Shown here one piece after another: positions 2,062 through 22,405 of a stretch of DNA of 64,000 bases. The DNA lies in assembly GCA_049793155.1 (NCBI GenBank), contig JBARBN010000053.1, positions 285-64,284 of the forward strand, given 5' to 3'. Source of the stretch: Nitrospirota bacterium. Lineage in GTDB: Bacteria; Nitrospirota; UBA9217. Below the pieces are notes generated by a model. It was not told where the DNA came from and searched no databases. It worked only from the letters and a program-made list of their open reading frames with translations. Numbering within the stretch: the first letter of the stretch is position 1; every line of letters starts with the position of its first letter. Made by a program: the position numbers and the translations under genes.

Positions 2062-2138
<77 letters not shown>

Positions 2139-2151
2139 GTTTGAAAAATTT

Positions 2152-2232
2152 GAAATTGAAGATTGGAAATTGTAAATTTTGAATTGTGCAGGAAGATCTA
2201 AAGTCGCAACTTTCCAATTTCCCATTTACAAT
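2152..2232. repeat. intergenic palindromic repeat, family E (ggaaattg/ttccaat units)
   Basis: gaaattgaagattggaaattgtaaat (2152-2177) faces ctttccaatttcccatttacaat (2210-2232). Related copies are at 48029-48130 and 59271-59393. Confidence 0.7.
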
Positions 2233-2245
2233 ACGCGAAGCGATT

Positions 2246-2322
2246 GCGCCTGTAGCTCAGATGGATAGAGCAACAGCCTTCTAAGCTGTGGGCCAGGGGT
2301 TCGATTCCCTTCAGGCGCACCA
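2246..2322 (+). tRNA. tRNA-Arg (anticodon TCT)
   Basis: Acceptor gcgcctg/caggcgc, anticodon stem acagc/gctgt, loop ct-TCT-aa, T-loop ggttcgattcc, encoded CCA. Confidence 0.9.
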
Positions 2323-2416
2323 ATAAAATAGTAAACGTGAGCAAGTGCGTGAAGGAAAATTGAGAAGGTCTCCTTTCAGGCCTGAATAGAATCAAATGCG
2401 GTATACGGATTGTTTG

Positions 2417-2445
2417 TTGACAAATCGAACGTGGCACTATAAAAT
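2417..2445 (+). promoter_or_regulatory. internal sigma70-type promoter (TTGACA-17-TAAAAT) upstream of tRNA-His
   Basis: TTGACA at 2417-2422, a 17-nt spacer, and TAAAAT at 2440-2445. Confidence 0.45.
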
Positions 2446-2488
2446 TAATCAGTTTCTCGATCCGCAATCCGTTTTCAAAAAATAACAT

Positions 2489-2565
2489 GGTGGGCGTAGC
2501 TCAGTTGGTAGAGCTCCAGGTTGTGGCCCTGGTGGCCGCGGGTTCAAGCCCCGTCGCTCACCCCA
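2489..2565 (+). tRNA. tRNA-His (anticodon GTG) with encoded G-1
   Basis: An extra 5-prime G pairs with C73. Anticodon stem ccagg/cctgg, loop tt-GTG-gc, T-loop ggttcaagcc, encoded CCA. Confidence 0.9.
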
Positions 2566-2575
2566 AATTTCGATC

Positions 2576-2612
2576 GTAGAGACGGTCACGTCGGCCGTCT
2601 CTACAGCTTTTA
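2576..2612 (+). terminator. hairpin (10-bp stem) plus a short T-run after tRNA-His
   Basis: gtagagacgg (2576-2585) pairs with ccgtctctac (2595-2604) and is followed by agctttta. It could be a terminator or an RNA-processing element inside the tRNA cluster. Confidence 0.35.
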
Positions 2613-2627
2613 TAAGGTGTTTTTGAC

Positions 2628-2704
<77 letters not shown>

Positions 2705-2783
2705 GAATCGCAATTCAAAGCAGCACCCGGCAAAGAGTGCGAACAAGAAACTATTTGCAATTTCCAATGAAGCGAAGCGACAA

Positions 2784-2860
2784 GCGCCTGTAGCTCAGCT
2801 GGATAGAGCGTTGGCCTCCGAAGCCAAAGGTCGTGGGTCCGACTCCCGCCAGGCGCACCA
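2784..2860 (+). tRNA. tRNA-Arg (anticodon CCG)
   Basis: Acceptor gcgcctg/caggcgc, anticodon stem ttggc/gccaa, loop ct-CCG-aa, encoded CCA. Confidence 0.9.
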
Positions 2861-2922
2861 TAAAAAATCAGTGCGTCAACGATCAACCCGTTCGAGATAC
2901 CTTTGAGAACCGCGACCTCTGT

Positions 2923-2948
2923 GTCATTCTGAGCAAAGCGAAGAATCC
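2923..2948. repeat. half-copy of intergenic repeat family A (gtcattctgagcaaagcgaagaatcc)
   Basis: It matches both arms of the inverted repeat at 63737-63846. It generates the spurious peptide ...ILRFAQNDT... in ORF 2449..2958. Confidence 0.7.
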
Positions 2949-3072
2949 TGGTTGTCAAATCTATCGAAAAACCCTTCTCGCTGCTCAGAGCGCTGCCTTG
3001 AGCCTGCCGAAGGGGTGATGCATCCGACTTTTTAGGCGCGCATCAATTTTTTACAGGCCGTTGAATTTTTTG

Positions 3073-3101
3073 TTGCATCAGGCGTTAAAGATAAGTATAA
3101 T
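3073..3101 (+). promoter_or_regulatory. sigma70-type promoter (TTGCAT-17-TATAAT) upstream of tRNA-Lys and tRNA-Leu (and possibly tig)
   Basis: TTGCAT at 3073-3078, a 17-nt spacer, and consensus TATAAT at 3096-3101, 36 nt before tRNA-Lys. Confidence 0.55.
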
Positions 3102-3136
3102 AACCGCTCTTTGTATCTGATACTCTCATCGCGTAT

Positions 3137-3212
<76 letters not shown>

Positions 3213-3293
3213 TATTAAAACTCAGGGAGCAGTGAGCAGCAGGCAGCGGGTCGTGATGGCTGCTTTACGTTCACTGCTTTCTTTGTTCCTGAA

Positions 3294-3376
3294 GCGAGAG
3301 TGGCGGAACTGGCAGACGCGCCAGACTTAGGATCTGGTGGGCGACCATGGGGGTTCAAGTCCCCCCTCTCGCACCA
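3294..3376 (+). tRNA. tRNA-Leu (anticodon TAG), class II with long variable arm
   Basis: Acceptor gcgagag/ctctcgc, anticodon stem ccaga/tctgg, loop ct-TAG-ga, long variable arm, encoded CCA. Confidence 0.9.
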
Positions 3377-7397: not shown

Positions 7398-7667
7398 TGT
7401 TGATCGCCTTTTTCCCTTTTTTCTGATCTCGTTCTCCGTCTTCAGACTTCCCTCATTTCATTTGTGAATCCCTACAGCTTAATAAAGGTCGTCATTAGCA
7501 ACCGGAAACTTTTTTTCTGTTATACTAACAACAGAATCGTCTCTGAGAGTGCAGATGTGCGGATACGACGCTGAAATAAGTCTATAGTTGCAGTGCCGGA
7601 ATGGCAATAAAGTTATCGTTGGTTATGAAAGCTTAACGTGTACGCTTTATTAATGAAGGAGTCAGTG

Positions 7668-8393
7668 ATGCAAAAGGCATCTGTTTTATGCTTCACGCTG
7701 GCAATGTGTTTTTATTTTACCCATGCCTCCTTTGCTTATGAAACGATTCCTTTCAAAAATGGCGGAAACATCGAGGGCACGGTGGAGTTTGCCGGGGCAC
7801 AGGTACCAAGTGATCCCATTGTCTCACTTACCTCCGAGACGGAATTCTGTGGTAACAGCATGCCCGCCCAACAATACCTGATCAGGAATAGAAAGGTCCA
7901 GAATGTGATCCTTTTCCTGGATGGCATCAAGGCAGGAAAGGCGATTCCCCGGGAGGCGCTTACGGTGACGAGTCGAAAATGCGCATTCGTTCCTCATGTT
8001 GCGGCGGGATTCAAGGGAAATAAGATCATCTTGAAGACCGATGATCCGGTATTCCATGCCTTTGATATTCATGCTTCCATAAGCGGCAAGGAGATCTATC
8101 ACGTCGCTCTTCATGAAAAAGATTCCTCGGTGACAAAAACTCTTTCGAAGGACGGTCTTCTGGATCTCACGTGTTATACCCATCCCTGGCAGCATGCATA
8201 CGTCTATATTTTTGATCATCCGTATGTAGCGATTACAGATGAAAAGGGTGAATTTGTCATCAAAGACATTCTCCCGGGAACCTATACGGTCAAAGCCTGG
8301 CACGAAGCGCTGGAGATAACAGAGATCCGGGATATAAAAGTTGAAAGCGGGAAAACCAGCACCATTAAAGTCAAGTACAACAAGGAGCATTAA
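7668..8393 (+). CDS. secreted cupredoxin-domain protein, paralog 1 (Cys-His-Gln site), with a carboxypeptidase-regulatory-like C-terminal domain
   Basis: Signal peptide MQKASVLCFTLAMCFYFTHASFA. FVPHVAAGFKGNKIILKTDDPVFHAF fits the cupredoxin pattern F-x-P...N-x-D...H. Ligand loop TCYTHPWQH (C-x2-H-x2-Q). C-terminus EKGEFVIKDILPGTYTVKAW. A GAAGGAG RBS precedes the ATG at 7668. Confidence 0.7.
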   Translation: MQKASVLCFTLAMCFYFTHASFAYETIPFKNGGNIEGTVEFAGAQVPSDPIVSLTSETEFCGNSMPAQQYLIRNRKVQNVILFLDGIKAGKAIPREALTVTSRKCAFVPHVAAGFKGNKIILKTDDPVFHAFDIHASISGKEIYHVALHEKDSSVTKTLSKDGLLDLTCYTHPWQHAYVYIFDHPYVAITDEKGEFVIKDILPGTYTVKAWHEALEITEIRDIKVESGKTSTIKVKYNKEH

Positions 8394-8417
8394 TCTTTCT
8401 TACTGAGGAGGTTCGTG

Positions 8418-9131
8418 ATGAAAAGAAGCGTTATTTTTTTTAGTGTTTTGGCGGTACTGTTTTCTTTCTCTGCAGTTTCCTTTGCCTATGAAACGATCGA
8501 AGTGAAGAATGGGGGAAGCATCGAAGGCGTGGTCGAGTTTACAGGGGCAACGGTCCCGAAGGATCCCATGGTCACGCTGAGTTCCGAGGTAAAATACTGC
8601 GGCAAAACGCTCCCGGCGGAAAAGTATCTGATCAAGGATAAGATGATCGAAAACGTCGTTGTGTATTTGACGGATATCAAGTCCGGAAAGGCGATTCCCG
8701 GCGAGCCGGTCACCCTGACGAATATAAAATGTCTTTTTTCGCCTCATGTCGCCGTCGGCTTCAAGGGCGGCAAGATCATTCAGAAGAACGATGACCCCAT
8801 CTTTCACAATATCCATACGTATCTGAACGGCAAGACAATGTTCAATATAGGTCTTCCTGAAAAGGGATCTTCGGTGACGAAGCCATTGCTGAGGGACGGC
8901 CTCATGGAAGTGACGTGCGACAGCCATCCCTGGATGCATGGTTTTATCCAGATTCTGGACCATCCCTACGGAGTAGTCACCAATGCAAAAGGAGAATTTT
9001 CAATAAAAGACATCCCCGCCGGCACCTATACCGTTGAAGCCTGGCACGAGGCCCTGGGCAAGGTAAAAGTGGCAAATGTCAAAGTTGAAAGCGGTAAGGC
9101 CAGCAAGATCAAGCTCGAATACAAAAAATAA
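8418..9131 (+). CDS. secreted cupredoxin-domain protein, paralog 2 (amicyanin-like Cys-His-Met site)
   Basis: Colinear with the upstream gene. Roughly half the residues are identical by eye. NDDPIFHNIH plus TCDSHPWMHGF (C-x2-H-x2-M, compare amicyanin CTPHPFM). Signal peptide and a GAGGAGG RBS are present. Confidence 0.7.
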   Translation: MKRSVIFFSVLAVLFSFSAVSFAYETIEVKNGGSIEGVVEFTGATVPKDPMVTLSSEVKYCGKTLPAEKYLIKDKMIENVVVYLTDIKSGKAIPGEPVTLTNIKCLFSPHVAVGFKGGKIIQKNDDPIFHNIHTYLNGKTMFNIGLPEKGSSVTKPLLRDGLMEVTCDSHPWMHGFIQILDHPYGVVTNAKGEFSIKDIPAGTYTVEAWHEALGKVKVANVKVESGKASKIKLEYKK

Positions 9132-9155
9132 AACGCTGAAAAAGAGGAGGAGAAC

Positions 9156-10424
9156 ATGAAAAAGGGTACGTTGCTGGGGGTTTTGGTTTTTTTTCTGGTT
9201 GTCATGATGATGCCGTATGAGTCTTACGCTGTTCCGTCCTATGCCCGTCAGGTCCAGAAGCCCTGCACTGCCTGTCACACCGTCTGGGGAAACCTGAACC
9301 AGTACGGAAGACAGTTCAAGGTCAAGGCGTATACCGATGTGAGCGAGAAATGGGAGATGATCAACAAGGACAACATGAACCTGCCGACGATCGCCCCGTT
9401 TTCCACGAGGGTCGTCCTTGAGCCATATGTAAAAGACAACACTCCCGGTGCCCCGGGCTCGACCAGCGACGTCAATCAAGTTGCGATATTCATGGCAAGC
9501 AGGGTTTTTGATTACGCCGGCGTATTTGCGAGCGCCGAGGCCGATGGCTTTTCCGCCACCTCGGGCGGCGGTACATTTAGCATACCGACTGTAAAAGTGG
9601 CTTTTCAGTATCCCCTGGGAGAGGGCAATACCATAGGCCTGGTCGCCTTCGGAGGGCTCGCCGCATCAGCAGATCCCTTTAACACCTTGGGAGGCAGGGA
9701 CCGGGACCTGTCTTTTGATGACGGGACTCCCTTTATCCTTAATACAGGCTGGACGTTCAATTTCTGGAGCGGAACGAACATCGGTGAAGTTCTTCACGGC
9801 TACTTCCTCGGCAACCGTCTCTATGCTGCCGTGGGCGTAATGAGGGGCGGGAACACAGCGGATGGTATAGCCGGCCTGTCAAACGCCGATAATTCAGATC
9901 CCAATGATATGTACTATCGCATTGCCTGGGACCAGAAACTTCCGAACGGCGCGGTCACCTTCGGAGGCGTTCTTTACGATGGCAAACAGAGGATTACCAC
10001 TGGAGGCTTACCCTCCTATGATTCCAAGGTTAAAAGGTCGTATGTTGACCTATCGTTGGAGCAAAACTACGGAGAGGACCATATCGTCGAATTGCAGGTA
10101 CTCTACGGCGGCGGCGAGGACAAGAACGTATTTAACGACGACACGGGGGGAAGAAAGTTCAGCGGTTCCTATGTTCAGGCTGATTATTACTATGACAGGA
10201 CGATCGGCGTGATAGCTTCTCTCAACAACATAAAATACAAGGATGTCTTAGCAACAGACCTGACCCCGATTGACAAAGTCGATCAATGGCTTGTCGGCGT
10301 TAATTACATGCCCTGGCTGAACACGAAAGTGGCCCTTCAATATGCGAACGCCAAGACAACGATGTTGGACGGCACGGATTCAACCAACAGGATCACGAGA
10401 CTCGTGTTGGATCTCCTGTACTAA
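9156..10424 (+). CDS. outer-membrane monoheme cytochrome-porin fusion (Cyc2/Cyt572-like)
   Basis: Signal peptide, then a single CxxCH (KPCTACH) about 12 residues into the mature protein. After that come about 380 aa with no further Cys, rich in Gly and aromatics with an alternating beta-strand pattern, ending ...LVLDLLY (C-terminal aromatic). Confidence 0.6.
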   Translation: MKKGTLLGVLVFFLVVMMMPYESYAVPSYARQVQKPCTACHTVWGNLNQYGRQFKVKAYTDVSEKWEMINKDNMNLPTIAPFSTRVVLEPYVKDNTPGAPGSTSDVNQVAIFMASRVFDYAGVFASAEADGFSATSGGGTFSIPTVKVAFQYPLGEGNTIGLVAFGGLAASADPFNTLGGRDRDLSFDDGTPFILNTGWTFNFWSGTNIGEVLHGYFLGNRLYAAVGVMRGGNTADGIAGLSNADNSDPNDMYYRIAWDQKLPNGAVTFGGVLYDGKQRITTGGLPSYDSKVKRSYVDLSLEQNYGEDHIVELQVLYGGGEDKNVFNDDTGGRKFSGSYVQADYYYDRTIGVIASLNNIKYKDVLATDLTPIDKVDQWLVGVNYMPWLNTKVALQYANAKTTMLDGTDSTNRITRLVLDLLY

Positions 10425-10440
10425 CTGACATAGTAGCATT

Positions 10441-10468
10441 CTCCCGGGGGCCGGCCGGTCCCCGGGGT
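10441..10468 (+). terminator. GC-rich hairpin between the cytochrome-porin gene and the bd-like oxidase gene (possible attenuator or RNA-stability element)
   Basis: cccgggg (10443-10449) pairs with ccccggg (10460-10466). It lies in the only sizeable gap (71 nt) of the operon. The downstream T-run is weak. Confidence 0.3.
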
Positions 10469-10495
10469 CTTTCCTAAACAAGCTGGAGGTACATA

Positions 10496-12241
10496 ATGGC
10501 GGAAGCCGATGTGAAAAAAGGCATCCTGAAGGGAATTGTTAAATTTACTGCCACTCTCGGCGCTGGCTTTATACTCCTCGTTGTTCTTAAAAATATGCTG
10601 GCCGCGCCTTCAGAGGACGGATACCGGTTCTTCCCCCTTATCGGAAGCAGGGACTGGATCTGGATCATCGCCCAGCTCCACCTGAATTTCGCCGCCTTCG
10701 TCCTGGGGGTCCCCATCTTTGCGGTTGCGATGGAGTTCATGGGATGGAAAAAGAAGGATGAGAGACTGGATCGTATCGCGTATGACTTTACCAAGCTTTT
10801 TACGCTGGCGTATAGCGTGACGGCGGTTATGGGCTCTTTCTTTCTCATCAGTCTTCCGCTGCTCTACCCTAAATTTATCGATTATATGATGAAGATACTC
10901 GGGCCCACCTGGTGGTTGTACCTCATCGTGATGTATGGAGAGGTGTTCGTCTGTTATTATTATTTTTATTCCTGGAAAAAATTGAAAGAACGGAAGGGCT
11001 TTCATGTCGCCGTGGGCGTGCTGTTGAATATCCTCGGGGCGACGCTGCTTTTGATCACCAGTTCATGGGTCGGATTCATGACCACCCCGGCAGGCGTGAA
11101 CGCGGACGGTGATCTGGTCAGCAGATGGGCCGCGATCCACACTCACATGTGGATACCCCTGTCCATGCATCGGTTCGTGGCCAACATCGTATTCGGGGCA
11201 GGGATCGCCGCGGCCTATGCGGCCTTCAGATTCATTACCGCAGAGACGGATGAAGAACGGGCATATTTTGACTGGATGGGCTATACCTCGGCGATCATAT
11301 CGATCGGGGCCTCACTCCTGCTGCCCGGTGTCGGGTATCTTCTCGGTGTCGAGATCTATTCCTTCAATGAACAAATGGGCATCCAGCTCATGGGAGGATT
11401 TTTCGCGTGGTTGTGGGTCATGCAGTCCATCATGATCGGCGCGATCCTGTTCTTCATCAATTATTATCTCTGGATATCTCTCCAAAAAATGCCGGGAGGT
11501 GAACGGTATTTCACGCATGTAAAATTCATATTTATTGCACTGGTCATAGGCTATGCGGTCTGGCTCGTGCCCCATGATGTAGCGCTGAGCCTCGAAGAGG
11601 CACGGCGGACGGGCACGTATCATCCCGCACTGGGCAAACTGGGCGTCATGGCCGCAAAGAACACCGCTGTAATCCTTTCCTATCTCGCCACTTTTTTGAG
11701 CTTCGCCATTTTCCGGATGAGCAACAAAGAGGCGACCGTTTCCTGGGCCAAAAAAGGGAATATCGCCCGGACGCTGATCATTGTCGGCTCAGTCGCCGGC
11801 GTGCTGGGGATCGGCATCTACAGTTATTACGTCTCCGCGGCAGTAAGAGTGAAGGTCCTTTCACCCATCCAGTTCGGTATCTTCTTCCTTTCCCTTGTTG
11901 CCCTGTATGTTCTTGACAGCGCCATGTATAAGGGCGCCCGGATCATCGGCGAACCGAGGTGGGGCAAGATGCCCGAGCGATCGCAGTATGCGCTTATCGC
12001 GATAACCGTGACCTTTACCTGGCTGATGGGGATGCTGGGCTACATGAGGGCCGGCGCAAGGCAATACTGGCATGTGTACGGGATCATGAAGAACACGAGC
12101 CCGGACGCCTATCTGCCCACCCATGGATATGCATCGGTCATTGTCACGATCGTCACGCTGCTTTTTCTGCTCCTTATCTCCTTTGTCTTTTGGAGCATCA
12201 TGAAACTTGAGAAGGTCCTTGGTGAAAGGAAGGGGAACTGA
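10496..12241 (+). CDS. cytochrome bd-like oxidase, CydA-related subunit (orphan, about 14 TM)
   Basis: 581 aa with about 14 hydrophobic helices by eye. WIWIIAQLHLNFAAFVLGVPIF resembles the CydA helix-1 His region (..MYHFLFVPLTLG..). SMHRFVANIVFGAGIAAAYAAF resembles the CydA His186 region. No cydB-like gene is adjacent. Confidence 0.6.
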   Translation: MAEADVKKGILKGIVKFTATLGAGFILLVVLKNMLAAPSEDGYRFFPLIGSRDWIWIIAQLHLNFAAFVLGVPIFAVAMEFMGWKKKDERLDRIAYDFTKLFTLAYSVTAVMGSFFLISLPLLYPKFIDYMMKILGPTWWLYLIVMYGEVFVCYYYFYSWKKLKERKGFHVAVGVLLNILGATLLLITSSWVGFMTTPAGVNADGDLVSRWAAIHTHMWIPLSMHRFVANIVFGAGIAAAYAAFRFITAETDEERAYFDWMGYTSAIISIGASLLLPGVGYLLGVEIYSFNEQMGIQLMGGFFAWLWVMQSIMIGAILFFINYYLWISLQKMPGGERYFTHVKFIFIALVIGYAVWLVPHDVALSLEEARRTGTYHPALGKLGVMAAKNTAVILSYLATFLSFAIFRMSNKEATVSWAKKGNIARTLIIVGSVAGVLGIGIYSYYVSAAVRVKVLSPIQFGIFFLSLVALYVLDSAMYKGARIIGEPRWGKMPERSQYALIAITVTFTWLMGMLGYMRAGARQYWHVYGIMKNTSPDAYLPTHGYASVIVTIVTLLFLLLISFVFWSIMKLEKVLGERKGN

Positions 12242-12756
12242 TGAAAAAGGGCGTCTTGAAGCTCGCGATCATCGTCATTGGCCTGAACTTGATCTTTCTT
12301 TATATTGGTCTGGAGTTTCTTCCCCAGTCGGAATCCAGGCCGCCGAAGGTGATCAAGATCGCGGAAGGCATCTCCCAGGAAGACCTGATCCAGGTCGGCG
12401 AGGAGATCGTTTTTGGAAAAGGCCAGTGCATGGTATGTCACCCGGCAAAACCTGAATCGGGAATGCGGGCTCCATCCATGGCCGCAATAGGAGCAGACCT
12501 GGAGAAGGAGGCCCGCGAGCGGGGGATGACGTCCGAAGATGTTGTTTTCGAGGCCCTTATCAACCCCTCCAAATACATCGTAAAGGGGTTTGAAGACAGC
12601 ATGTCGCGCGTGGACAAGCCTCCGACGTCGCTGACCGACGGGGAGATCATAGCAGTAGCAGCATATCTGCAGAGCCATGGAGGAAAAGTCACGCTTTCCT
12701 ATCCCGGTTCTGTCCCGATCCTGAAGGGCCAAATAGCAAAGTCAGGAGGGAAGTAA
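12241..12756 (+). CDS. membrane-anchored monoheme c-type cytochrome
   Basis: N-terminal TM helix, one CxxCH (GQCMVCH) and a distal Met region. Its ATG overlaps the upstream stop (TGATG). Confidence 0.8.
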   Translation: MKKGVLKLAIIVIGLNLIFLYIGLEFLPQSESRPPKVIKIAEGISQEDLIQVGEEIVFGKGQCMVCHPAKPESGMRAPSMAAIGADLEKEARERGMTSEDVVFEALINPSKYIVKGFEDSMSRVDKPPTSLTDGEIIAVAAYLQSHGGKVTLSYPGSVPILKGQIAKSGGK

Positions 12757-12757
12757 G

Positions 12758-13561
12758 ATGCAATTCATATTCCCCATCATCACTTTGATCGGTTTGACGA
12801 TCTCGATCATCTCCAGTATGAAAAAATCCCCGTTCTTCAACTTCGTGGGTATCCAGATGGCCATCTACGGAGGATTGAAAAGTCTGGCGCTCGTCATGCC
12901 TCCTCTGCCGGGACAAGTTGTTGTCATGCTCGTGATCATGTCCTTCTTTTCGTTTCTCATCTATTTTTCGATCCAGGATGATACGCTGAAGGCCTTTCTT
13001 GAGCCCATGAGAGCGGTCATTGCCGACGATGACAAAAGAATTTTGAGGATACTCATCGTATATGTCCTCATACCCCTGCTGGCCGGATATATAACCTACG
13101 TAGAGGTAAAGCCTGCGTTTGAACCTCCGTTGTCGGGGAGGATCACCCATCCCGAGCCACCGTCGGAGATCGACTTTAAAGGAGACACAATAAAGATACT
13201 CGGATTGGAGAACCCCCTGCGAAAGGATTCTGCGAATCTTTCGAAGTATGGCGAAGAGGGGAAAGTAATTTACTTCCAGAACTGTTTCATCTGTCACGGC
13301 GCTGACTTGGACGGTCGGGGACAATTTGCCCAGGCATTTAATCCGCCGCCGCCTCCCTTCCGGGGCACGGATACGATCGCGCAGCTGCCGGAGTCCTATG
13401 TGTTCTGGAGGATAGCAAAGGGATGGACGGGTCTTTCCGCGGGCGCGACCCCATGGGATTCAGCCATGCCGGCATTTGAGAATATACTTACACAGGAACA
13501 GACGTGGAAGGTGATCCTCTATATGTATGAAGCTACCGGTAACAAACCAAGGACATGGTAA
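12758..13561 (+). CDS. polytopic membrane protein with a C-terminal monoheme cytochrome c domain
   Basis: 3-4 N-terminal TM helices followed by YFQNCFICHGADLDGRG ...WDSAMPAF (class I cytochrome c). There is a 1-nt gap to the upstream gene. Confidence 0.75.
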   Translation: MQFIFPIITLIGLTISIISSMKKSPFFNFVGIQMAIYGGLKSLALVMPPLPGQVVVMLVIMSFFSFLIYFSIQDDTLKAFLEPMRAVIADDDKRILRILIVYVLIPLLAGYITYVEVKPAFEPPLSGRITHPEPPSEIDFKGDTIKILGLENPLRKDSANLSKYGEEGKVIYFQNCFICHGADLDGRGQFAQAFNPPPPPFRGTDTIAQLPESYVFWRIAKGWTGLSAGATPWDSAMPAFENILTQEQTWKVILYMYEATGNKPRTW

Positions 13562-13586
13562 GGATATGCGGAAGGGAGATTCTCCA

Positions 13587-15008
13587 ATGAGGTTTTTTAT
13601 TGCCCTTGTTTTGCTCGCGTCAATTCCAATGACCGCACTTTCCGAAGAGAAGGGAAAGGCCCTCTATGATCAGTCGTGCGCTTCATGCCATGGGGAAAAG
13701 GGCGATGGGAAGGGCCCGGCGGCTGATTTCGTGTTCCCGAAACCAAGGGATTTTACGAAGGGCACGTACAAATTCAAATCCACGGGGTCGGGTGAGCCGG
13801 CCCTTGATTCGGACATTCTCCGGACAATACGGGAGGGAAATCCCGGTACGTCGATGCCTGCCTGGAAACGCTTCAGCGATGATGAGGCCAAAGCGCTTGT
13901 CGTTTATCTGAAGCAGTTTTCTCCGGATACCTTTTCGATACAAGGCGCCCCTTTCAAGATAGGTAATCCGCCGGGCAACAAGGATAAGATGATAGCACTC
14001 GGGAAGGAACTGTACCAGTCGGTGAAGTGCTGGGAATGTCACGGCAAGGCCGGCAGGGGCGACGGCGAGAAGGGATGGCAGGAAAAGTTCAAGGACGATT
14101 GGGGCAACAAGATATATCCTGCAGACCAGACAAGTCCCTGGGAATACAGGGCAGGCAGTGATCCGAAGGATGTGTTAAAAACGATTTCAGTCGGTTTCGA
14201 CGGTACGCCCATGACCTCATACGGAGATACGGTCACGGAGGAGAAGAGGTGGGCGCTTGCGTATTTTGTGCAATCGCAGCAGCAGACAAGGGTCCTCGGC
14301 CCGGCATTGCGGGTGAAAAAAGTGGAGGCCATCCCCGCTGCAACCGACGATCCGGTCTGGCAGGGCGTTGAGTATCTTGATCTTCCGATGGCAGGACAGG
14401 TGATCTTTGAGCCGCGTGATTTTACCGCGTTGATCACCAATGCGCGGGTACGAGGGGTCTATAGCAAGACCGAGTTGGCAGTGATGATAGAGTGGACCGA
14501 CAAACAGCAAAACAAGGGTGAGGACAATCTCCCCCCCGACGCAGCACGTATACAGTTCCCGACCAAAGCCCCGGAAGTAGCCAAGCCGTACTTATTCATG
14601 GGGGACAAGAAACTGGGGGTCAATATCTGGCAATGGAAGGCCTCTGACAATCTTGCTGTTGAATTCACTGCAGCAGGACCCGAGAATCTGACTCAGCAGG
14701 AAAAACAGGACGTGAAAGTAACTGCTGCGTTTACAGATGGACGCTATAGGGTCATGTTCAGGAGGCTGTTGAACTCAGCCAATGAAAACCACACCGTTTT
14801 TGAAGTCGGCAAGTTTATGCCGTTTTCGGTTACCCTCTACGATGGTCGTAATAATGAGTCGGACAAGAAGGGGGCGATCTCAGCTTGGTATTACCTGGTG
14901 CCGGAGCCGGCAACGCCTGCGAAGGTTTATATGCTCCCGCCCCTGGTATTCCTTGTCATACTCGGCATCGGCTTTATATTGCACAAGAAGTTGAGGAAGA
15001 AACGTTAG
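13587..15008 (+). CDS. diheme cytochrome c fused to an EB_dh/DOMON-like (heme b type) domain, with a C-terminal TM anchor
   Basis: Signal peptide MRFFIALVLLASIPMTALS. CASCHGEKGDGKG and CWECHGKAGRGDG. A roughly 200-aa domain, DDPVWQGVEYLDLPMAGQ..., resembles the ethylbenzene-dehydrogenase gamma family. C-terminus VYMLPPLVFLVILGIGFILHKKLRKKR. An alternative start exists at 13566. Confidence 0.65.
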   Translation: MRFFIALVLLASIPMTALSEEKGKALYDQSCASCHGEKGDGKGPAADFVFPKPRDFTKGTYKFKSTGSGEPALDSDILRTIREGNPGTSMPAWKRFSDDEAKALVVYLKQFSPDTFSIQGAPFKIGNPPGNKDKMIALGKELYQSVKCWECHGKAGRGDGEKGWQEKFKDDWGNKIYPADQTSPWEYRAGSDPKDVLKTISVGFDGTPMTSYGDTVTEEKRWALAYFVQSQQQTRVLGPALRVKKVEAIPAATDDPVWQGVEYLDLPMAGQVIFEPRDFTALITNARVRGVYSKTELAVMIEWTDKQQNKGEDNLPPDAARIQFPTKAPEVAKPYLFMGDKKLGVNIWQWKASDNLAVEFTAAGPENLTQQEKQDVKVTAAFTDGRYRVMFRRLLNSANENHTVFEVGKFMPFSVTLYDGRNNESDKKGAISAWYYLVPEPATPAKVYMLPPLVFLVILGIGFILHKKLRKKR

Positions 15009-15025
15009 GCAGGAGAATCATCGGC

Positions 15026-16021
15026 ATGTACAAAAAAATATTTATCCCTATAGATAACTCGAAATATTCCCGCTACTGTACCGACATTGGGGTGTCCCTG
15101 GCTTCCAAGCTCGGTTCCGAACTGATCGGCAGCCACGTCTACAGCGCGCGTTTGCACGACAAGCGGTTCCGGGACATGGAGGCAGGACTGCCCGGGCATT
15201 ATCAGGAGGAAGGCAGACTGCGGAAATCGAGAAAGGTCCACGATTCCCTGATCGGGGACGGGTTGAGAATAATCTCCGATTCTTATCTGGAATCCTTTAA
15301 AAAGGACTGCAGGGAATCCTCAGTGCCGTTCAATTGTAAAATGATGGAGGGGAAAAACTGGCTGGAGCTGGTAAAAGACATCCGAAGCAGCGGCTATGAT
15401 CTGGTGATCATGGGGATCCTCGGCCTCGGCGCGATGAACGGCAACCTTATCGGGAGTGTCTGTGAACGGGTAGTGCGGAAGGTCACGGCAGATGTCCTGG
15501 TCGTAAAGAACAGTGAACCGCTCAATGAACGGATCGTCGTGGCGATCGACGGCAGCGATCATTCCTTTTCGGCATTGAAAAAAGCACTGGCCCTGAACAA
15601 ACAGTTTCATTCGAAGATCGAGGCCGTATCCGTTTATGACCCCTATTTTCACAGAAGGGCCTTCCAGGCTCTGGTGGGCGTCCTCTCAGACGAAGCCGGG
15701 AAAATGTTCAAGTTTAAGGATCAGGAAAAGCTGCACGATGAGGTCATTGATGACGGTTTGGGAAAGATATATCAGGGGTACCTTGAACAAGCTGTTCAGA
15801 TAGGGGCCGCTCAAGGGGTCGAAGTGAAAAGTACGCTTCTCGCAGGAAAGGCGTATGACGAAATCCATAAATATCTGGAAAAAGACCCGCCATCTCTTCT
15901 CATCGTAAGCCGCTTTGGTGCGCATACGACCGACGAACAGGACATCGGCAACACTGCAGAGAACCTTCTTCGCCTTGCACCGTGCAATCTGCTTATCACG
16001 GGTAATTCTCACGTTGAATGA
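15026..16021 (+). CDS. tandem universal stress protein (two UspA domains)
   Basis: MYKKIFIPIDNSKYS..., VIMGILGLG...GSVCERVVRK..DVLVVK, and a second repeat IVVAIDGSDHS...LLIVSRFG...GNTAENLLRLAPCNLLI. An AGGAGA RBS precedes the ATG at 15026. Confidence 0.8.
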   Translation: MYKKIFIPIDNSKYSRYCTDIGVSLASKLGSELIGSHVYSARLHDKRFRDMEAGLPGHYQEEGRLRKSRKVHDSLIGDGLRIISDSYLESFKKDCRESSVPFNCKMMEGKNWLELVKDIRSSGYDLVIMGILGLGAMNGNLIGSVCERVVRKVTADVLVVKNSEPLNERIVVAIDGSDHSFSALKKALALNKQFHSKIEAVSVYDPYFHRRAFQALVGVLSDEAGKMFKFKDQEKLHDEVIDDGLGKIYQGYLEQAVQIGAAQGVEVKSTLLAGKAYDEIHKYLEKDPPSLLIVSRFGAHTTDEQDIGNTAENLLRLAPCNLLITGNSHVE

Positions 16022-16081: not shown

Positions 16082-16996
16082 ATGGAGCTGTATATGCGAT
16101 CTCCTGTGTTCACCTATTTAATAGTAACCGTTTCTCTTATATTCTCAGCGGTTCTTTTTGCGATGGGGAACCCATATGCCTACGCAGGCAACGAAGCGAT
16201 TGAGGATCAGGTTGCCGGTATTTTATCCGAGGAATCTGCGCCGGGGAAAATTAAAATACTTGTCTTAGATTTCAGCGTTTCATCCGTAGATACTGAAAGG
16301 AAACCCACTGAGAAGGAATTGAAAGACCGGGGGATTCTGTACACGGAAGAATTCATAGCCAACCTCATGAATAAGATCAGAGATTTAGGGAAACGGGACA
16401 AAATATCCATAATTGATCGCAGCAGACTGGAGGATATCCTTCGAGAAAAAAAATTGCCAATAATGGCCACTCCAGAGCGCACGGCAAGTGAAATCGGCCG
16501 TCTTGCAGGGGTAGATGTGATAATCTCCGGCAGACTGCAAATAGCAGGTAACACCATAACCGCAACGACAAAAGTGGTCAGAGTTAAAGATGGCGAAATA
16601 CTGGATATTGTAAAACAAGACAAACAGGAGAAACCATCCCCAATTGTCCATGTCCCCGTAATTATCCTGGAGAGAGTTGAAGAACTTAAAATTGGTACCT
16701 ATACGGCGTTGCCTCTGAACGTGCCCTCGGGCGGTACACTCAGCGTGACCATTGAAGTCGTTCATGGAAATCCGATCGATATAAACGTCATACCGGGATC
16801 GGATTTGGAAAACTTCAAAGTCCAAAAAAAGTTTAATAATATTTCCGATTTTATGGCCACGAAGATAAAGAGCTACAAACGCTCGGCTAAAGTTCGCAAT
16901 GGCGTTGACTATTATCTTGTACTTCGTGATAGCTCTTTGGGTATTTTTACCGCGCAGAGGAGCGAGATTAAGATCATAGTTCAACTGGAACCATGA
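16082..16996 (+). CDS. hypothetical exported or anchored protein: LpoB/FlgO/CsgG-like N-domain plus DUF1883-like C-domain
   Basis: N-terminal hydrophobic segment. KILVLDFSV...ISIIDRSRLEDILREKKL...GVDVIISGRL fits the TolB-N/LpoB-like fold pattern. The C-terminal roughly 110 aa (SGGTLSVTIEVVHGNPIDINVIPGSDLENF...YYLVLRD) resemble DUF1883. The gene is AT-rich. Confidence 0.45.
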   Translation: MELYMRSPVFTYLIVTVSLIFSAVLFAMGNPYAYAGNEAIEDQVAGILSEESAPGKIKILVLDFSVSSVDTERKPTEKELKDRGILYTEEFIANLMNKIRDLGKRDKISIIDRSRLEDILREKKLPIMATPERTASEIGRLAGVDVIISGRLQIAGNTITATTKVVRVKDGEILDIVKQDKQEKPSPIVHVPVIILERVEELKIGTYTALPLNVPSGGTLSVTIEVVHGNPIDINVIPGSDLENFKVQKKFNNISDFMATKIKSYKRSAKVRNGVDYYLVLRDSSLGIFTAQRSEIKIIVQLEP

Positions 16997-17246: not shown

Positions 17247-18521
17247 ATGAACGACCTCCATGTTATATCCTGGAATGTCACTAGAAGATGTAATCTTGAA
17301 TGCACCCATTGCTATCTTCCCGCGGATACGAGAAAAGAAAGTTCTGCTCTTCCCGCCGCTGACGAACTCTCCACCAAGGATGCCTTCCGGCTCATCGATC
17401 AAATTGCCGCTGTCAACCCCGAGGTCATGCTGATCCTGTCTGGAGGAGAACCCCTCCTGAGAGGGGACATTTTTGATCTATCTGCGTACGCCTCAGGTAA
17501 GGGCATGATGGTTGTTATGGGTTCCAATGGACTCCTTATTGATGACGCCGTTGCCCGCAAGCTGAAACAGGCCGGGGTCTCCGGGATAAGCATCAGTCTT
17601 GATTCAATCGACCCGATAATTCACGATGATGTCCGCTCTTGCCCGGGCGCCTGGAAAAGGGCGGTAGCGGCAATAGAGAACTGCAAGAACGCGGGATTGT
17701 CAGTGCAGATCAATACGGTTGTCACCGGCAGGAACTGTGATGAGCTGCCCGCATTGATGAACTTTTCTCAAAAACGGGGAGTAAAGGTCTTTAGCCCGTT
17801 CTTCCTGGTCTGTACCGGCAGGGGAGAAGAACTGACGGACATATCGCCGCAGCAATACGAATTGGTATTGTCCCGGATCGTCGAGTCTCAGGGAAAATAT
17901 GGCGATCTGATGATAAGGACACGGTGCGCCCCGACAATACGTCGAATTCTGTATGATAAAGATCCCGACTCATCGCTGCTCAAGATGGGCGCCGGGCGTT
18001 GTCTCGCCGGTTTGACCTATTGCCGGATCACGCCTGAAGGTGACGTGACACCCTGTCCATACCTGTCCGTTTCAACCGGAAATATCCGCGAGCGGGATTT
18101 CGGGGACATCTGGAACAACTCCAGCCTCTTCGACTCTCTGAGAAATCCTGCTCTCAAGGGCAAATGTAAAGGATGTGCCTTGCGCCTCGTCTGCGGCGGT
18201 TGCAGAGCGAGGGCCTATGAGACCTATAAAGACTACCTGGAAGAAGATCCCTGGTGCAGCTATATTCCCAATGGAGGTGAAGTGGTGAAACCACCATCGT
18301 TCGGCAAGGATAACAATGCTTCAGCAAATGGATCGATCAAGCCTCTCTGGACGGCGGAGGCGGAAGAGCGGTTGAAGAGGGTGCCCTCGTTCGTTCGCAC
18401 GATGGTAAGAAGCGCCGCGGAGCGTTACGCGATCGAGCATAATTATCAAGAGATCACCCCTGGTATGATGGAAGAACTCAAACAAAAAGCAGGGATGGGA
18501 GGAATGGGTGGACATCGATAA
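17247..18521 (+). CDS. radical SAM/SPASM protein (AhbD/NirJ-like) with a C-terminal PCP_red-like extension
   Basis: CNLECTHCY radical SAM cluster motif and SGGEPLL. A Cys-rich SPASM region (CPYL..., CKGCALRLVCGGCRARA). The C-terminal roughly 70 aa (PLWTAEAEERLKRVPSFVRTMVRSAAERYAIEHNYQEITPGMMEE) resemble the protochlorophyllide-reductase 57-kD C-terminal domain. Confidence 0.7.
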   Translation: MNDLHVISWNVTRRCNLECTHCYLPADTRKESSALPAADELSTKDAFRLIDQIAAVNPEVMLILSGGEPLLRGDIFDLSAYASGKGMMVVMGSNGLLIDDAVARKLKQAGVSGISISLDSIDPIIHDDVRSCPGAWKRAVAAIENCKNAGLSVQINTVVTGRNCDELPALMNFSQKRGVKVFSPFFLVCTGRGEELTDISPQQYELVLSRIVESQGKYGDLMIRTRCAPTIRRILYDKDPDSSLLKMGAGRCLAGLTYCRITPEGDVTPCPYLSVSTGNIRERDFGDIWNNSSLFDSLRNPALKGKCKGCALRLVCGGCRARAYETYKDYLEEDPWCSYIPNGGEVVKPPSFGKDNNASANGSIKPLWTAEAEERLKRVPSFVRTMVRSAAERYAIEHNYQEITPGMMEELKQKAGMGGMGGHR

Positions 18522-19996: not shown

Positions 19997-21217
19997 ATGA
20001 GGTTATCAATGCGGTATAGTTGTGCTTTAGCTGCGCTGTTGTTATTAGGCCTCGGTGATGCAACAACTGCATCGGCTGTAGTCGTCGAAGGAAGAAGTTC
20101 CACGGAGCTTCTGTGGTACAACGATATTGTCGATGGCAGCAAGCAGACGGAGGCCGCGGAGTTGCTCAGGGTCTCGATCAGCGGTATCGACAACGGCAAC
20201 AAACTGTCCATCAAGGGGTACGGCAAACTCGATTATGATTTGAAGCACGGCGGTGATCTGGAAAATCGATTGTATTATTTATATGCCGACTACAAGGGTT
20301 TCATGGACAAGGCCGATATCAAACTGGGACGGCAGTTTGTGAACCTGTCAGCCGGCAGCGCTCTTCTGGACGGCATCGAGGCGGACATCAACAAGATCGG
20401 CCCCGTTGGTTTCGTGATCACGGGGGGGCGGGACGTCATTTTCGGTGAAGAAAAGGAGTTGGCGAGCCATCTCTATTCTTACGGCGCTCAGGCGTACCTC
20501 ACCGGCCCTCAGATGACCTATCTTGATATCAGCTACTATCGTGCTTACGATTATGGCGATATCGCCCGGGATATCATCGGCAGCAGCTACAAGCAATATT
20601 TTTTCAATCTCGTCAAAGCATACGCGAATGCCAGGTATGATCTCACGAGCAAGTCGTTCAACGAGGTCCTTGCGGGACTCAAGTATTTCCCGACGCTGAA
20701 CCTGATGCTGACCGCTGAGCATTATGAAAGTTACCCTACGTTTGATACGACCTCCATATATTCGGTATTTGCCGTCGATAAGTTCAAGGAGAATTTATTC
20801 AGGGCAGAATATACGCTGGCTGCATGGGTCGATATCAGCCTTGCCTTCAGCCATGAGAGCGTCGGTGAGGGCGGCCAAGCGAAATTGTACGAGGCAGGGT
20901 TGAGGTTCAGGCCTTCGATGAACACGACGATTGGCGTCTTCCACGACAAACGCAATGGATATCCCGGGGACCTTGACGGATATAAGATCTACGCTGAATA
21001 CAGCGCCATGGGAAAATGGAAGGCCGCAGGGGGCATTGACTATGATGCCTATGAACGGGACGACATGACCGGCCAGGAGACTGCACGCAAATACTGGGTC
21101 GGTGGAAAGTATGTTTTTGCAAAAAATATGGCCAGCTCGATTCGTTTGGAGGACGATGTCAATGTCAACTATACGAAAGACATACAGGGCAGGCTTACCT
21201 TTGATGTTGATTTCTAA
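19997..21217 (+). CDS. putative outer-membrane beta-barrel porin of a porin-cytochrome conduit
   Basis: Signal peptide ...GDATTASA. 406 aa with alternating hydrophobic and aromatic strands, many Y/G/D turns, and a C-terminal ...RLTFDVDF. The nonaheme gene starts 17 nt downstream. Confidence 0.6.
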   Translation: MRLSMRYSCALAALLLLGLGDATTASAVVVEGRSSTELLWYNDIVDGSKQTEAAELLRVSISGIDNGNKLSIKGYGKLDYDLKHGGDLENRLYYLYADYKGFMDKADIKLGRQFVNLSAGSALLDGIEADINKIGPVGFVITGGRDVIFGEEKELASHLYSYGAQAYLTGPQMTYLDISYYRAYDYGDIARDIIGSSYKQYFFNLVKAYANARYDLTSKSFNEVLAGLKYFPTLNLMLTAEHYESYPTFDTTSIYSVFAVDKFKENLFRAEYTLAAWVDISLAFSHESVGEGGQAKLYEAGLRFRPSMNTTIGVFHDKRNGYPGDLDGYKIYAEYSAMGKWKAAGGIDYDAYERDDMTGQETARKYWVGGKYVFAKNMASSIRLEDDVNVNYTKDIQGRLTFDVDF

Positions 21218-21233
21218 TGAAAGGGGAGCATCC

Positions 21234-22307
21234 ATGAAGAAATTGCTCATATTGGCAATGGTGATAGTTATTGCTTCGGCGGTGGTTGCATTTGCCGCTC
21301 ATAATCCAGGCATAACTGCGCAGACGGAATCTCCTGCAGCACAACCGGCGTCGCCTCCCGGAGATCAGTCATCAGCGACTCCTGCAGAACCGGCGCCCCA
21401 GACGGAAGCATCTGCTCCGGCAACACCCGCTCCGGTGGAACCTGCTCCGGCGACACCTGCTCCAGCAGCGTCTGCTCCGGTGGCACCTGCTACGACAGCT
21501 CCTGCTCCACAACAGGAGGCCTCTCCGGCGCCGGCCTGGCAACCGGCTACTTCGGCGACATCCACGGCTGCTTCAACTGCGCCGCCTGCAGGGTTCATGG
21601 TTCAGCAAATGTCCCATAAAGATTTTGCGAAAATGGACTTAAAAGAGTGCACGAAATGCCATAAAGGTTCAGGCGTTGCACCGACTCACGGGTCAGATCA
21701 GATGAGGGAACACAGTTTCCTCGCACGCCGAGCCGGAAAGAACTGTACGGACTGTCATAACCAGCAGTTCTGTTTAGATTGTCACAAGGGCGGCGGCATT
21801 GACGCGGATCTGAGCGTCTCGAATTATCGTACGAGCTACGTACCCAAAACCCACCGGACCGATTTCCGGGAGATCCATCCCATAAAGGCACTGGACAATC
21901 CGCAGTCCTGCTACCGGTGCCACGACGCGAAATACTGTTCAGAGTGCCATGCCAAGTTCAAGGGAGATGATCTCAGGATACAGTCTCACCGCAGGGCGTG
22001 GTCTGACCTTCAAGCAGGAAATCCGGGCCCTGCCCACGCTTCATTTACCGCGGACCAGTGCCAGACCTGCCATCCGGGCGGGCTTCTTCCAAAGCATGTA
22101 TGGTCTGCTGACCATGCGCAGGAGGCGCGGAGGAACCTGCAGGCATGCCAGACCTGTCACAGTGACGGCGATGTATGCATGACCTGTCACAGCGCCCGGC
22201 GCGGCCTCATGGTCAATCCTCATCCCAGGGGATGGGACTCTGTGAAGGGCAGATATAGCAAGAAGAGCGGCGGTCGAAGCTGTCAAAAGTGTCATGATAC
22301 TTATTAA
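21234..22307 (+). CDS. periplasmic nonaheme c-type cytochrome with an N-terminal Pro/Ala-rich spacer
   Basis: Signal peptide MKKLLILAMVIVIASAVVAFA. About 100 aa of P/A/T/S low complexity. Nine CxxCH motifs (CTKCH, CTDCH, CLDCH, CYRCH, CSECH, CQTCH, CQTCH, CMTCH, CQKCH) in about 235 aa. An AGGGGAG RBS precedes the start. Confidence 0.85.
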   Translation: MKKLLILAMVIVIASAVVAFAAHNPGITAQTESPAAQPASPPGDQSSATPAEPAPQTEASAPATPAPVEPAPATPAPAASAPVAPATTAPAPQQEASPAPAWQPATSATSTAASTAPPAGFMVQQMSHKDFAKMDLKECTKCHKGSGVAPTHGSDQMREHSFLARRAGKNCTDCHNQQFCLDCHKGGGIDADLSVSNYRTSYVPKTHRTDFREIHPIKALDNPQSCYRCHDAKYCSECHAKFKGDDLRIQSHRRAWSDLQAGNPGPAHASFTADQCQTCHPGGLLPKHVWSADHAQEARRNLQACQTCHSDGDVCMTCHSARRGLMVNPHPRGWDSVKGRYSKKSGGRSCQKCHDTY

Positions 22308-22405
22308 CGACGGGCCATATTGAATCGATATGAATAACACCTGAGGGAATAGGGAGTCACGAAGAATCATGATTGCCATCCCATCAAAGCAAGGAGGATC
22401 GCAAA

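Follow-up and report, generated by a model that had tools for sequence, protein, structure and literature searches.

We analysed a 64,000-nucleotide (nt) window from the genome of a groundwater/soil-type Nitrospirota bacterium (GCA_049793155.1, contig JBARBN010000053.1; all coordinates below are window positions), in which eight co-directional, tightly packed open reading frames (ORFs), named here g1–g8, occupy positions 7668–16021 of the + strand. They encode two secreted cupredoxins (g1 and g2), a Cyc2-type cytochrome–porin (g3), a homologue of the cytochrome bd subunit CydA (g4), three cytochrome subunits (g5–g7) and a universal stress protein (Usp, g8), and may together form a respiratory operon that carries electrons from outside the cell to a bd-like oxidase. 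The initial annotation of this stretch had spoken of nine genes; the count is eight, and its own list gives eight products and seven gaps. Its spacings are all exact (24, 24 and 71 nt, a 1-nt TGATG overlap at 12241, then 1, 25 and 17 nt), with the qualification that the 24-nt gap between g1 and g2 assumes an ATG start at 8418, one codon further in than the GTG at 8415 with which the g2 ORF opens.

The third gene (g3, 9156–10424, +) encodes a predicted outer-membrane, fused monohaem cytochrome c–porin of the Cyc2 type, recognised from its CXXCH, its motifs, an AlphaFold2 (AF2) model and Foldseek comparison. Published diagnostics of Cyc2 are a signal peptide, one CXXCH, a length of at least 365 amino acids (aa) and a 16-strand OprP/OprO-like porin, together with the motif AXPXFAR[Q/K][T/Y] before the CXXCH and PXL four residues after it (Keffer et al. 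2021, PMC8406198). In g3 the signal peptide, read by inspection alone, is MKKGTLLGVLVFFLVVMMMPYESYA, followed by VPSY; its n-region is basic, its core is hydrophobic and the residues at -3/-1 are small, and residues 3–17 are modelled by AF2 as a helix. The single CXXCH stands at residue 37 of 422 aa within the stretch A-V-P-S-Y-A-R-Q-V-Q-K-P-CTACH-T-V-W-G-N-L, whose deviations from the published motifs are conservative (Y for F, V for T/Y, and G for the P of PXL). No variation is seen at V, P, S, R and Q among 42 family members, of which 31 have Y and 11 have F at the F position; the PXL proline is present in 34 and replaced by G in 6 and by A in 2. The AF2 model (predicted local distance difference test (pLDDT) 74.8, predicted template-modelling score (pTM) 0.76) places 16 strands within residues 82–420, and its best Foldseek matches are 16-strand porins, OprP (2o4v) and OprO (4rjw) among them. 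The predicted protein carries the published diagnostics of Cyc2, its membership resting on motif and fold criteria. By likeness to Cyc2 we assign it a putative role as Fe(II) oxidase, a role that shares the even chance we give to the electron-uptake reading as a whole (see below).

Pfam and NCBIfam scans of g3 returned no family. A profile search against 1.8 billion representatives gave a superfamily of 2563 clusters (E ≤ 0.001); among the best 150 of these, each of the 122 full-length clusters carries a single CXXCH, and the motif is present in 101. For 10 distant relatives, from Desulfurella, Gammaproteobacteria and Bacillota, the cluster names are just "cytochrome c" or "hypothetical", and a search started from one distant relative (P0261) produced 3983 matches with no named iron oxidiser among the best 120. 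Set beside the Cyc2/Cyt572 porins of Mariprofundus PV-1, Leptospirillum and 'Ca. Mariimomonas ferrooxydans', g3 is alike in its signal peptide, its single N-terminal CXXCH, its AxPxFARQ and PxL motifs, its 16-strand OprP-like barrel and its length of ~420 aa, but it represents a Nitrospirota-specific subfamily with Y for F and G for P in those motifs. Cyc2 homologues are already known in Nitrospirota (Manganitrophaceae paper), and Fe(II) oxidation has been shown in E. coli expressing the Cyc2 of a Thermodesulfovibrionia metagenome-assembled genome (MAG; PMC13647500).

Upstream of cyc2 lie g1 (7668–8393, +) and g2 (8418–9131, +), each encoding a signal peptide, a predicted cupredoxin domain and a C-terminal CarboxypepD_reg β-sandwich (1.6e-08 in g1, Pfam). 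The two products are 55% identical, with ligand columns conserved in the alignment. In g2 the ligands H131, C168, H171 and M174 form the C-x2-H-x2-M loop of the amicyanin pattern, whereas g1 is of a Gln axial-ligand type (C-Y-T-H-P-W-Q), with Gln in place of the axial Met. H131 and H171 are invariant in 29 diverse homologues, Cys and Met are kept in the oxidase-adjacent copies, and two extra cysteines (C62 and C106) are invariant in the g2 alignment. The cupredoxin models that the initial annotation had proposed as a check (PF00127 and PF13473) gave no match to g1 or g2 in a Pfam scan at E ≤ 0.1, where CarboxypepD_reg alone was seen; the assignment comes instead from profile, ligands and fold. 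Compared with PDB sequences, the family profile matched a Nitrosopumilus blue copper protein (5fc9, 2.4e-4) and amicyanin (~1e-3, over the whole domain). The AF2 model of g2 (pLDDT 88.3) matched 5fc9 with a target-normalised template-modelling score (TMt) of 0.73, amicyanin with 0.68–0.70 and plastocyanin with ~0.7 (all at Foldseek probability 1.00), and also CuA domains and AcoP. On these three lines of evidence we classify g1 and g2 as predicted type-1 cupredoxins.

The fourth gene (g4, 10496–12241, +) encodes a putative terminal oxidase, a CydA homologue that matches PF01654 at 7e-16 over residues 58–286, in its N-terminal half. Aligned to Geobacillus CydA (5doq_A), it places H62 on H21, Y142 on E101 and E149 on E108. 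The haem-ligand equivalents are H62 (E. coli H19) and, spaced as H186 and M393, H225 and M385. H62 is invariant in 39 g4 homologues, and H62, Y142, E149, Y156, Y158, H170, H225, M385, N389 and W525 are each at least 97% conserved in the same set. The signature of the OR-N2 subfamily comprises Tyr at E99, Glu at E107, Y/Y, His at H126/H186, M/N at M393, S/A at E445 and Trp, and its reference row reads H99/Y183/E190/Y197/Y199/H213/H269/M430-N434/S563/W569 (Murali, Gennis and Hemp 2021, Table S6). The corresponding residues of g4 are Y142, E149, Y156, Y158, H170, H225, M385/N389, A519 (its conservation not tabulated) and W525; their spacings reproduce the OR-N2 row of that table, and every signature residue checked matches. 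The glutamate E149 (E. coli E107, the proton-channel Glu) sets g4 apart from OR-N1, which has Gly there.

Hydropathy alone gives, for g4, 13 clear segments and a weaker one at ~135–160, or about 14 transmembrane (TM) segments in all. The stretch from H225 to M385 holds four hydrophobic segments where the hydrophilic Q-loop would be, and without that loop g4 has no known quinol site. A tblastn search with g4 over the window found no CydB, OR-N1 or other paralogue, and a Pfam scan of the window ORFs found no CydB-like gene, so that g4 differs from the canonical CydAB quinol oxidase in lacking both a CydB partner in the window and a Q-loop. We classify g4, by its aligned signature residues, as an OR-N2 member of the cytochrome bd superfamily. 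Three further histidines, H360, H376 and H526, are at least 97% conserved in 39 sequences, the first two standing just before M385; conceivably these are the copper ligands that had been suggested for NIDE0901.

The next three genes encode the cytochrome subunits. The g5 product (12241–12756, +) is an N-terminally anchored monohaem cytochrome c with one TM segment and one CXXCH, in which C63, C66, H67 and M121 are invariant in 38 sequences, and the g6 product (12758–13561, +) is a polytopic monohaem cytochrome c (3–4 TM segments by hydropathy, one CXXCH) with conserved H131, C176, C179 and H180. The g7 product (13587–15008, +) joins a Kustc0457/CcoP-like dihaem cytochrome c (two CXXCH, two Cytochrom_C matches) to an EbdC/NxrC-like haem b domain (EB_dh, 8e-14, Pfam) and a C-terminal TM anchor. 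It matches TIGR03477 at 1.2e-27, below the cut-off of that model, and the PDB chains 6h5l_B (2e-44), 7b04_C and 2ivf_C; both g6 and g7 give weak CcoO/CcoP-type matches in NCBIfam. M338 of g7 aligns to EbdC M108, a Met kept in just 61% of the family. K428 lies ~3 residues beyond the printed EbdC alignment, near what we take to be the EbdC Lys ligand (K201), and is assigned by position, not alignment. The type II dimethyl sulfoxide (DMSO) reductase gamma subunits (EbdC/NxrC/NarC) share the EB_dh domain, but g7 has no alpha or beta neighbours: a Pfam scan of window ORFs of at least 150 aa found no adjacent molybdopterin alpha or FeS beta subunit, and the EB_dh domain serves here as a cytochrome subunit of the oxidase. 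The dihaem part of g7 (residues 20–233, window 13587–14290) is strikingly close to 6h5l chain B, titled conserved hypothetical cytochrome, which we take to be the dihaem cytochrome with which an HAO-like octahaem reductase is partnered in Kuenenia stuttgartiensis; in that case the likeness links electron carriers of anammox bacteria and Nitrospirota. The last gene of the unit, conserved in that position, is g8 (15026–16021, +), a tandem Usp (2.3e-34, two stretches).

Most product descriptions in the initial annotation agree with these results. It had listed two secreted cupredoxins, to which the C-terminal CarboxypepD_reg domains are now added; an outer-membrane monohaem/β-barrel fusion at 9156, which we find as one CXXCH with a predicted 16-strand barrel; a CydA-like, 14-TM protein at 10496 with no CydB partner, for which the PF01654 match, the ~14 hydrophobic segments and the retained haem-ligand residues speak; a TM-anchored and a polytopic monohaem c; a dihaem c with an EB_dh-like domain and a C-terminal anchor; and a tandem Usp. 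Its description of the oxidase as an orphan has to be dropped, because g4 falls in the known OR-N2 subfamily, with operons already described.

In OR-N2 operons, several genes for cytochromes c accompany one for a homologue of EbdC (Murali et al. 2021, supplement), a description that g5, g6 and g7 fit as cytochromes c with an EbdC-like haem b subunit. OR-N enzymes have been proposed to be cytochrome c-oxidising O2 reductases, and in aerobic Nitrospirales and Nitrospinota OR-N2 is the proposed main oxidase. In most Nitrospirales the terminal oxidase is considered to include the NIDE0901-like OR-N2, and TO_1 of 'Ca. Manganitrophus' is the OR-N2 counterpart, with a periplasmic cytochrome b (Manganitrophaceae paper). 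Judged by sequence, g4–g7 is this bioinformatically known Nitrospira 'NIDE0901/TO_1' oxidase, putative in activity. The window shares with those operons the 14 TM segments, the checked signature residues, the cytochromes c and the EbdC homologue, and differs from them in having, as do 12 of the 40 related GTDB genomes described below, Cyc2 directly upstream, after a cupredoxin; there is also no OR-N1 partner in the window. Its subunit logic, a polytopic catalytic subunit with an anchored monohaem c and a dihaem c, is shared with the cbb3 oxidase (CcoNOP), whereas the catalytic subunit here comes from the bd superfamily and not from the haem-copper superfamily. We found no report of Cyc2 or a cupredoxin in an OR-N2 operon in the searchable literature; among the papers listed by the search, "bd-like" and "Cyc2" occur together only in the Manganitrophaceae paper, as separate items. 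Within that literature, what seems to be new is an OR-N2 oxidase in one operon with a cupredoxin and Cyc2, parts that had each been predicted before. To that extent the earlier statement that the combination is uncharacterised holds for the association of Cyc2 and cupredoxin with OR-N2; the oxidase half was already known.

The rus operon of Acidithiobacillus ferrooxidans (cyc2-cyc1-acoP-coxBACD-rus) brings together Cyc2, two cupredoxins, a dihaem c and an oxidase, and an electron link from Cyc2 to rusticyanin is stated in the literature. The window operon has each of these kinds of component, shares the outside-to-oxidase logic and, in its g2 model, matches AcoP structurally. It departs from the rus operon in its oxidase (a CydA-like OR-N2, not an aa3 haem-copper oxidase), in its cupredoxins (amicyanin-like with CarboxypepD_reg, not rusticyanin), in its dihaem c (Kustc0457/CcoP-like and fused to a haem b domain) and in its host, a neutrophile-type Nitrospirota rather than an acidophile. 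Pfam and NCBIfam gave no COX1/COX2 and no rusticyanin match among g1–g8. The resemblance between the two operons is one of logic, not of homology.

An exact look-up of g4 in the assembly collection gave no match. Scanning the species representatives of GTDB with it yielded 40 loci (44%–86% identity), onto which we mapped the window proteins. Nearly all belong to Nitrospirota/Thermodesulfovibrionia, including 'Ca. Magnetobacterium' and 'Ca. Magnetominusculus'; the set also holds three Aquificaceae MAGs and one Anaerolineales MAG. A core of cupredoxin, OR-N2, two further cytochrome genes (c1 and c2) and the dihaem–EB_dh gene, in this order, recurs in nearly every locus long enough. Type A loci (13 of 40) resemble the window: one or two cupredoxin genes and Cyc2 precede the core, and Usp and an AhbD-like radical SAM gene come after it; Usp follows g7 in all 10 type A loci that extend past g7, and also in L027, L038 and L039. 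The 17 type B loci (L011:2385-15055, L008, L010, L013-L015, L018, L020, L023, L025, L028-L032, L036 and L037), from magnetotactic Nitrospirota, hot-spring Thermodesulfovibrio and Aquificaceae, are without Cyc2. Their upstream set consists of NosD (fused to Fer4_5), NosF, NosY, a cupredoxin paralogue in which Ser replaces the Cys ligand, and transglutaminase-like and thioredoxin-like genes, followed by cupredoxin and core, with NosL 3' of the core in most. Four type C loci have cupredoxin and core with Usp and AhbD. Because a cupredoxin precedes OR-N2 even where Cyc2 is missing, the cupredoxin belongs to the oxidase, and the Cyc2 of type A loci is inserted inside the unit.

NosDFY and NosL are the copper-delivery machinery of nitrous oxide (N2O) reductase, and their presence in the type B relatives suggests that the complex truly contains periplasmically delivered copper. 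No paper linking nosDFYL to bd-like oxidases was found in the searchable literature. For the window itself we considered and rejected a nos-type copper-maturation set: NosD/F/Y/L homologues flank the oxidase core of Magnetobacterium-type relatives and are absent from the window. The three Aquificaceae-labelled MAGs (L023, L024 and L025) have an OR-N2 core 68–70% identical to the Nitrospirota gene, with the same nos-type flanks, a likeness that suggests either lateral transfer between phyla or mis-binning.

In the reverse test we examined contigs found from Cyc2 homologues at 53, 43, 40, 39 and 32% identity. The homologues at 53% and 43% each lie in a complete operon, on two further contigs; with the 13 type A loci, these supply the co-occurrence in related genomes for which the initial annotation had proposed a neighbourhood survey, and the same gene order in independent genomes argues that the arrangement is not chance. 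At 40% identity a cupredoxin–Cyc2 pair is followed by a decayed OR-N2, and at 39% the pair stands alone. At 32% (L041:4855-9269) a cupredoxin (44% identical to g2, with ligands kept and a CarboxypepD_reg domain) and Cyc2 come directly after a cbb3 cluster (COX1/CcoN, FixO with cytochrome c, FixS and FixP_N). A still more distant Cyc2 homologue has a COX2/Cupredoxin_1-like gene directly upstream. The cupredoxin–Cyc2 pair is retained in 5 of 5 contexts examined, once beside a cbb3 oxidase; the pair is what stays constant, and where it has a partner, that partner is a terminal oxidase. Such retention is what would be expected, by analogy, of a portable electron-input cassette for terminal oxidases. 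On one contig (L048:6277-10983, GCA_027328945.1) the cupredoxin–Cyc2 pair is intact and the OR-N2 operon is in fragments (one of 55 aa, a 123-aa Cyt_bd_oxida_I piece and a Usp/PCP_red fusion), through either decay or assembly error.

The identities of the parts, their predicted folds, the conservation of their ligands and the conserved gene order have direct support. From them we propose, with confidence and doubt in about equal measure, that the eight genes are one respiratory electron-uptake operon of Thermodesulfovibrionia-type Nitrospirota. The path itself would run from extracellular Fe(II) (or Mn(II)) via Cyc2, cupredoxin and the c/b haems to OR-N2, which would reduce O2, and to this too we give roughly even chances; which way electrons flow, from which donor, to which acceptor and through which protein contacts is our inference, Fe(II) being the donor suggested by analogy. 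An extracellular or pore-accessible metal, most likely Fe(II) and alternatively Mn(II), would be oxidised by the single Cyc2 haem of g3, and the electron would pass to one or both of the periplasmic type-1 copper proteins (g2 with a Met and g1 with a Gln axial ligand), which may be docked by their C-terminal β-sandwich. From there g5 and g6, with their membrane-anchored c haems, and the dihaem c/haem b subunit g7 would take it over and pass it to the OR-N2 haems of g4, where O2 would be reduced at low oxygen tension and energy conserved by charge separation, as in cytochrome bd. Mn(II) as donor has been discussed for 'Ca. Manganitrophus' (Manganitrophaceae paper). The outside-to-oxidase logic of the initial annotation is retained here, given that Cyc2 lies inside a conserved cupredoxin/oxidase unit and that cupredoxin–Cyc2 also stands by a cbb3 oxidase; the gene count and the orphan label that came with it are not.

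Several points weigh against this proposal. Cultivated Thermodesulfovibrionia are anaerobes. Cyc2 is missing from 27 of the 40 related loci, which makes the oxidase independent of it, and a terminator-like hairpin stands between cyc2 and g4 in the window. Homology to Cyc2 leaves both substrate and direction unfixed, the superfamily being very large and most of its members coming from organisms without known iron oxidation. The predicted Cyc2 identity of g3 itself stands on motif and fold, with uninformative names among its distant relatives, and the haem domain of the model is of low confidence, as expected without haem. Finally, no OR-N enzyme has been purified or biochemically characterised and experimental confirmation of composition and function is lacking, which makes O2 reduction an assumption.

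The same wiring and direction could also do another job, with OR-N2 acting as a reductase by which an anaerobe scavenges or detoxifies low levels of O2 (or nitric oxide, NO). Lithotrophic growth would not be supported, and Cyc2 and the cupredoxin would simply feed in electrons from whatever extracellular reductant is available: Fe(II), Mn(II), reduced humics, a partner cell or a mineral acting like a cathode. Canonical bd oxidases also act in O2/NO detoxification, a role that the literature leaves open for OR-N, and the host class is mainly anaerobic; yet an eight-gene unit with three membrane cytochrome subunits would be a large investment for the purpose, and the proton-channel Glu is kept (E149, E. 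coli E107). The conserved Usp at the end of the unit and the MtrC-like porin–cytochrome module 4 kb downstream, which suggests general extracellular redox exchange, would suit detoxification, and the proposed standing of OR-N2 as main oxidase in aerobic Nitrospirales and Nitrospinota would not; overall we think it rather unlikely. Electrons might instead flow outward: drawn from metabolism, they would cross the c haems and then the cupredoxins, reach Cyc2 and go on to Fe(III), Mn(IV) or humics, with g4 a haem-bearing membrane electron carrier and not an oxidase. Direction cannot be read from sequence, the hosts are anaerobes, and the nearby decahaem MtrC/MtrF-like lipoprotein, 9-haem cytochrome and outer-membrane protein (OMP)-like gene are typical of metal reducers. 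Such a carrier, however, would be one without a Q-loop and hence without a known quinol site, while retaining the active-site His and channel Glu of O2-reducing CydA. Since, moreover, cupredoxin–Cyc2 also occurs beside a cbb3 oxidase, an obligate O2 reductase, and type-1 copper proteins are normally of high potential, outward flow seems to us distinctly improbable.

The remaining alternative turns on the 71-nt gap between cyc2 and g4, where sequence analysis found a GC-rich hairpin (10442–10467, +) of 11 bp, 9 of them GC, with a weak T-rich tail, TCTTTCC. Hairpins occupy the equivalent place in 10 of the 13 type A loci, with stem sequences that differ and a T run that is often longer. If the cup-cup-cyc2 transcript ended at this strong, conserved element, the OR-N2 genes would be a separate operon and the two would be mere neighbours with no shared electron path, as the genomes with cupredoxin–Cyc2 but no OR-N2, and the many with OR-N2 but no Cyc2, might lead one to think. 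However, only 28 nt, the GGAGG site included, separate the hairpin from the g4 ATG, and no good promoter match was found near the hairpin or the g4 start; there is thus no room for a promoter, and the hairpin looks like a within-transcript element. Mere adjacency also sits poorly with the cupredoxin as conserved upstream partner of OR-N2 even without Cyc2, with the position of Cyc2 inside the unit, and with an order kept down to 43% Cyc2 identity; we regard it as highly improbable. The hairpin is probably a partial terminator or a 3' mRNA-stabilising element inside one transcript. A conserved terminator-like hairpin at this place implies that expression of the two halves is probably unequal, and the inner-membrane complex would probably be made in smaller amounts than the soluble and outer-membrane parts.

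For the electron-uptake operon, a wider proposal can be put forward tentatively, and we hold it to be somewhat doubtful: that the CarboxypepD_reg-cupredoxin with Cyc2 is a portable uptake cassette that plugs into OR-N2 or cbb3 oxidases, that OR-N2 is a cupredoxin/cytochrome c:O2 oxidoreductase, that the system supports Fe(II)/Mn(II) lithotrophy, and that the cupredoxin is the periplasmic carrier. If true, Thermodesulfovibrionia, a class seen as one of anaerobic sulfate reducers, would be able to grow lithotrophically on Fe(II)/Mn(II), and the cupredoxin would be the long-sought periplasmic carrier from Cyc2 to the inner membrane in neutrophiles. The electron-uptake reading by itself, if right, would extend oxygen-linked iron/manganese oxidation to groundwater and soil Thermodesulfovibrionia-type Nitrospirota, and the locus would offer a compact eight-gene set for heterologous reconstruction. 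One operon makes testable the role and electron donor of the OR-N "bd-like" oxidases, which are regarded as the principal oxidases in Nitrospira, Nitrospina and 'Ca. Manganitrophus', and also the carrier from Cyc2 to the inner membrane in neutrophilic metal oxidisers, given a cupredoxin that is genetically tied to both partners.

Upstream of g1 we read in the sequence an AT-rich leader/promoter region of 270 nt (7398–7667, +), with a Shine-Dalgarno sequence, GAAGGAG, 6 nt 5' of the g1 ATG. An Rfam scan of the region upstream of g1 found no family and no regulatory RNA match, and a sigma-70 promoter scan gave nothing convincing on the + strand, its matches being no better than those in shuffled sequence. 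Housekeeping genes flank the locus upstream (a tRNA cluster, tig, clpP, clpX and engB) and further downstream (topA, dprA, ftsY, rny and dxs). We considered a horizontal-transfer island and rejected it, given the unremarkable GC content and the housekeeping genes on both flanks. The tRNA cluster comprises seven tRNAs upstream of tig/clpP/clpX, within window positions 2062–3373, and a 6S RNA gene lies at 49616–49794 (104 bits).

Downstream of g8, an AhbD/NirJ2-like radical SAM/SPASM enzyme with a C-terminal PCP_red domain is encoded at 17247–18521 (+; TIGR04055 and TIGR04545, ~1e-95 to 1e-99, below the cut-offs); it may supply or modify haem for the haem-rich complex. In most related loci the AhbD-like gene stands directly 3' of Usp, and in the window alone a CsgG-like lipoprotein gene (16082–16996) lies between the two. 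Four kilobases downstream, at 19997–24604, is a second extracellular-electron-transfer module, which encodes a 406-aa secreted, OMP-like protein with no Pfam family and the end ...FDVDF, a cytochrome with 9 haems, and a lipoprotein with 10 haems that matches MtrC/MtrF domains II/IV (1.9e-50). Other redox and envelope genes nearby encode a DUF362 and 4Fe-4S protein (24697–25764, -), a tetrahaem cytochrome c with four Cytochrom_C domains (26593–27870, -) and a DUF3373 protein (4e-131; 38627–40051, +).

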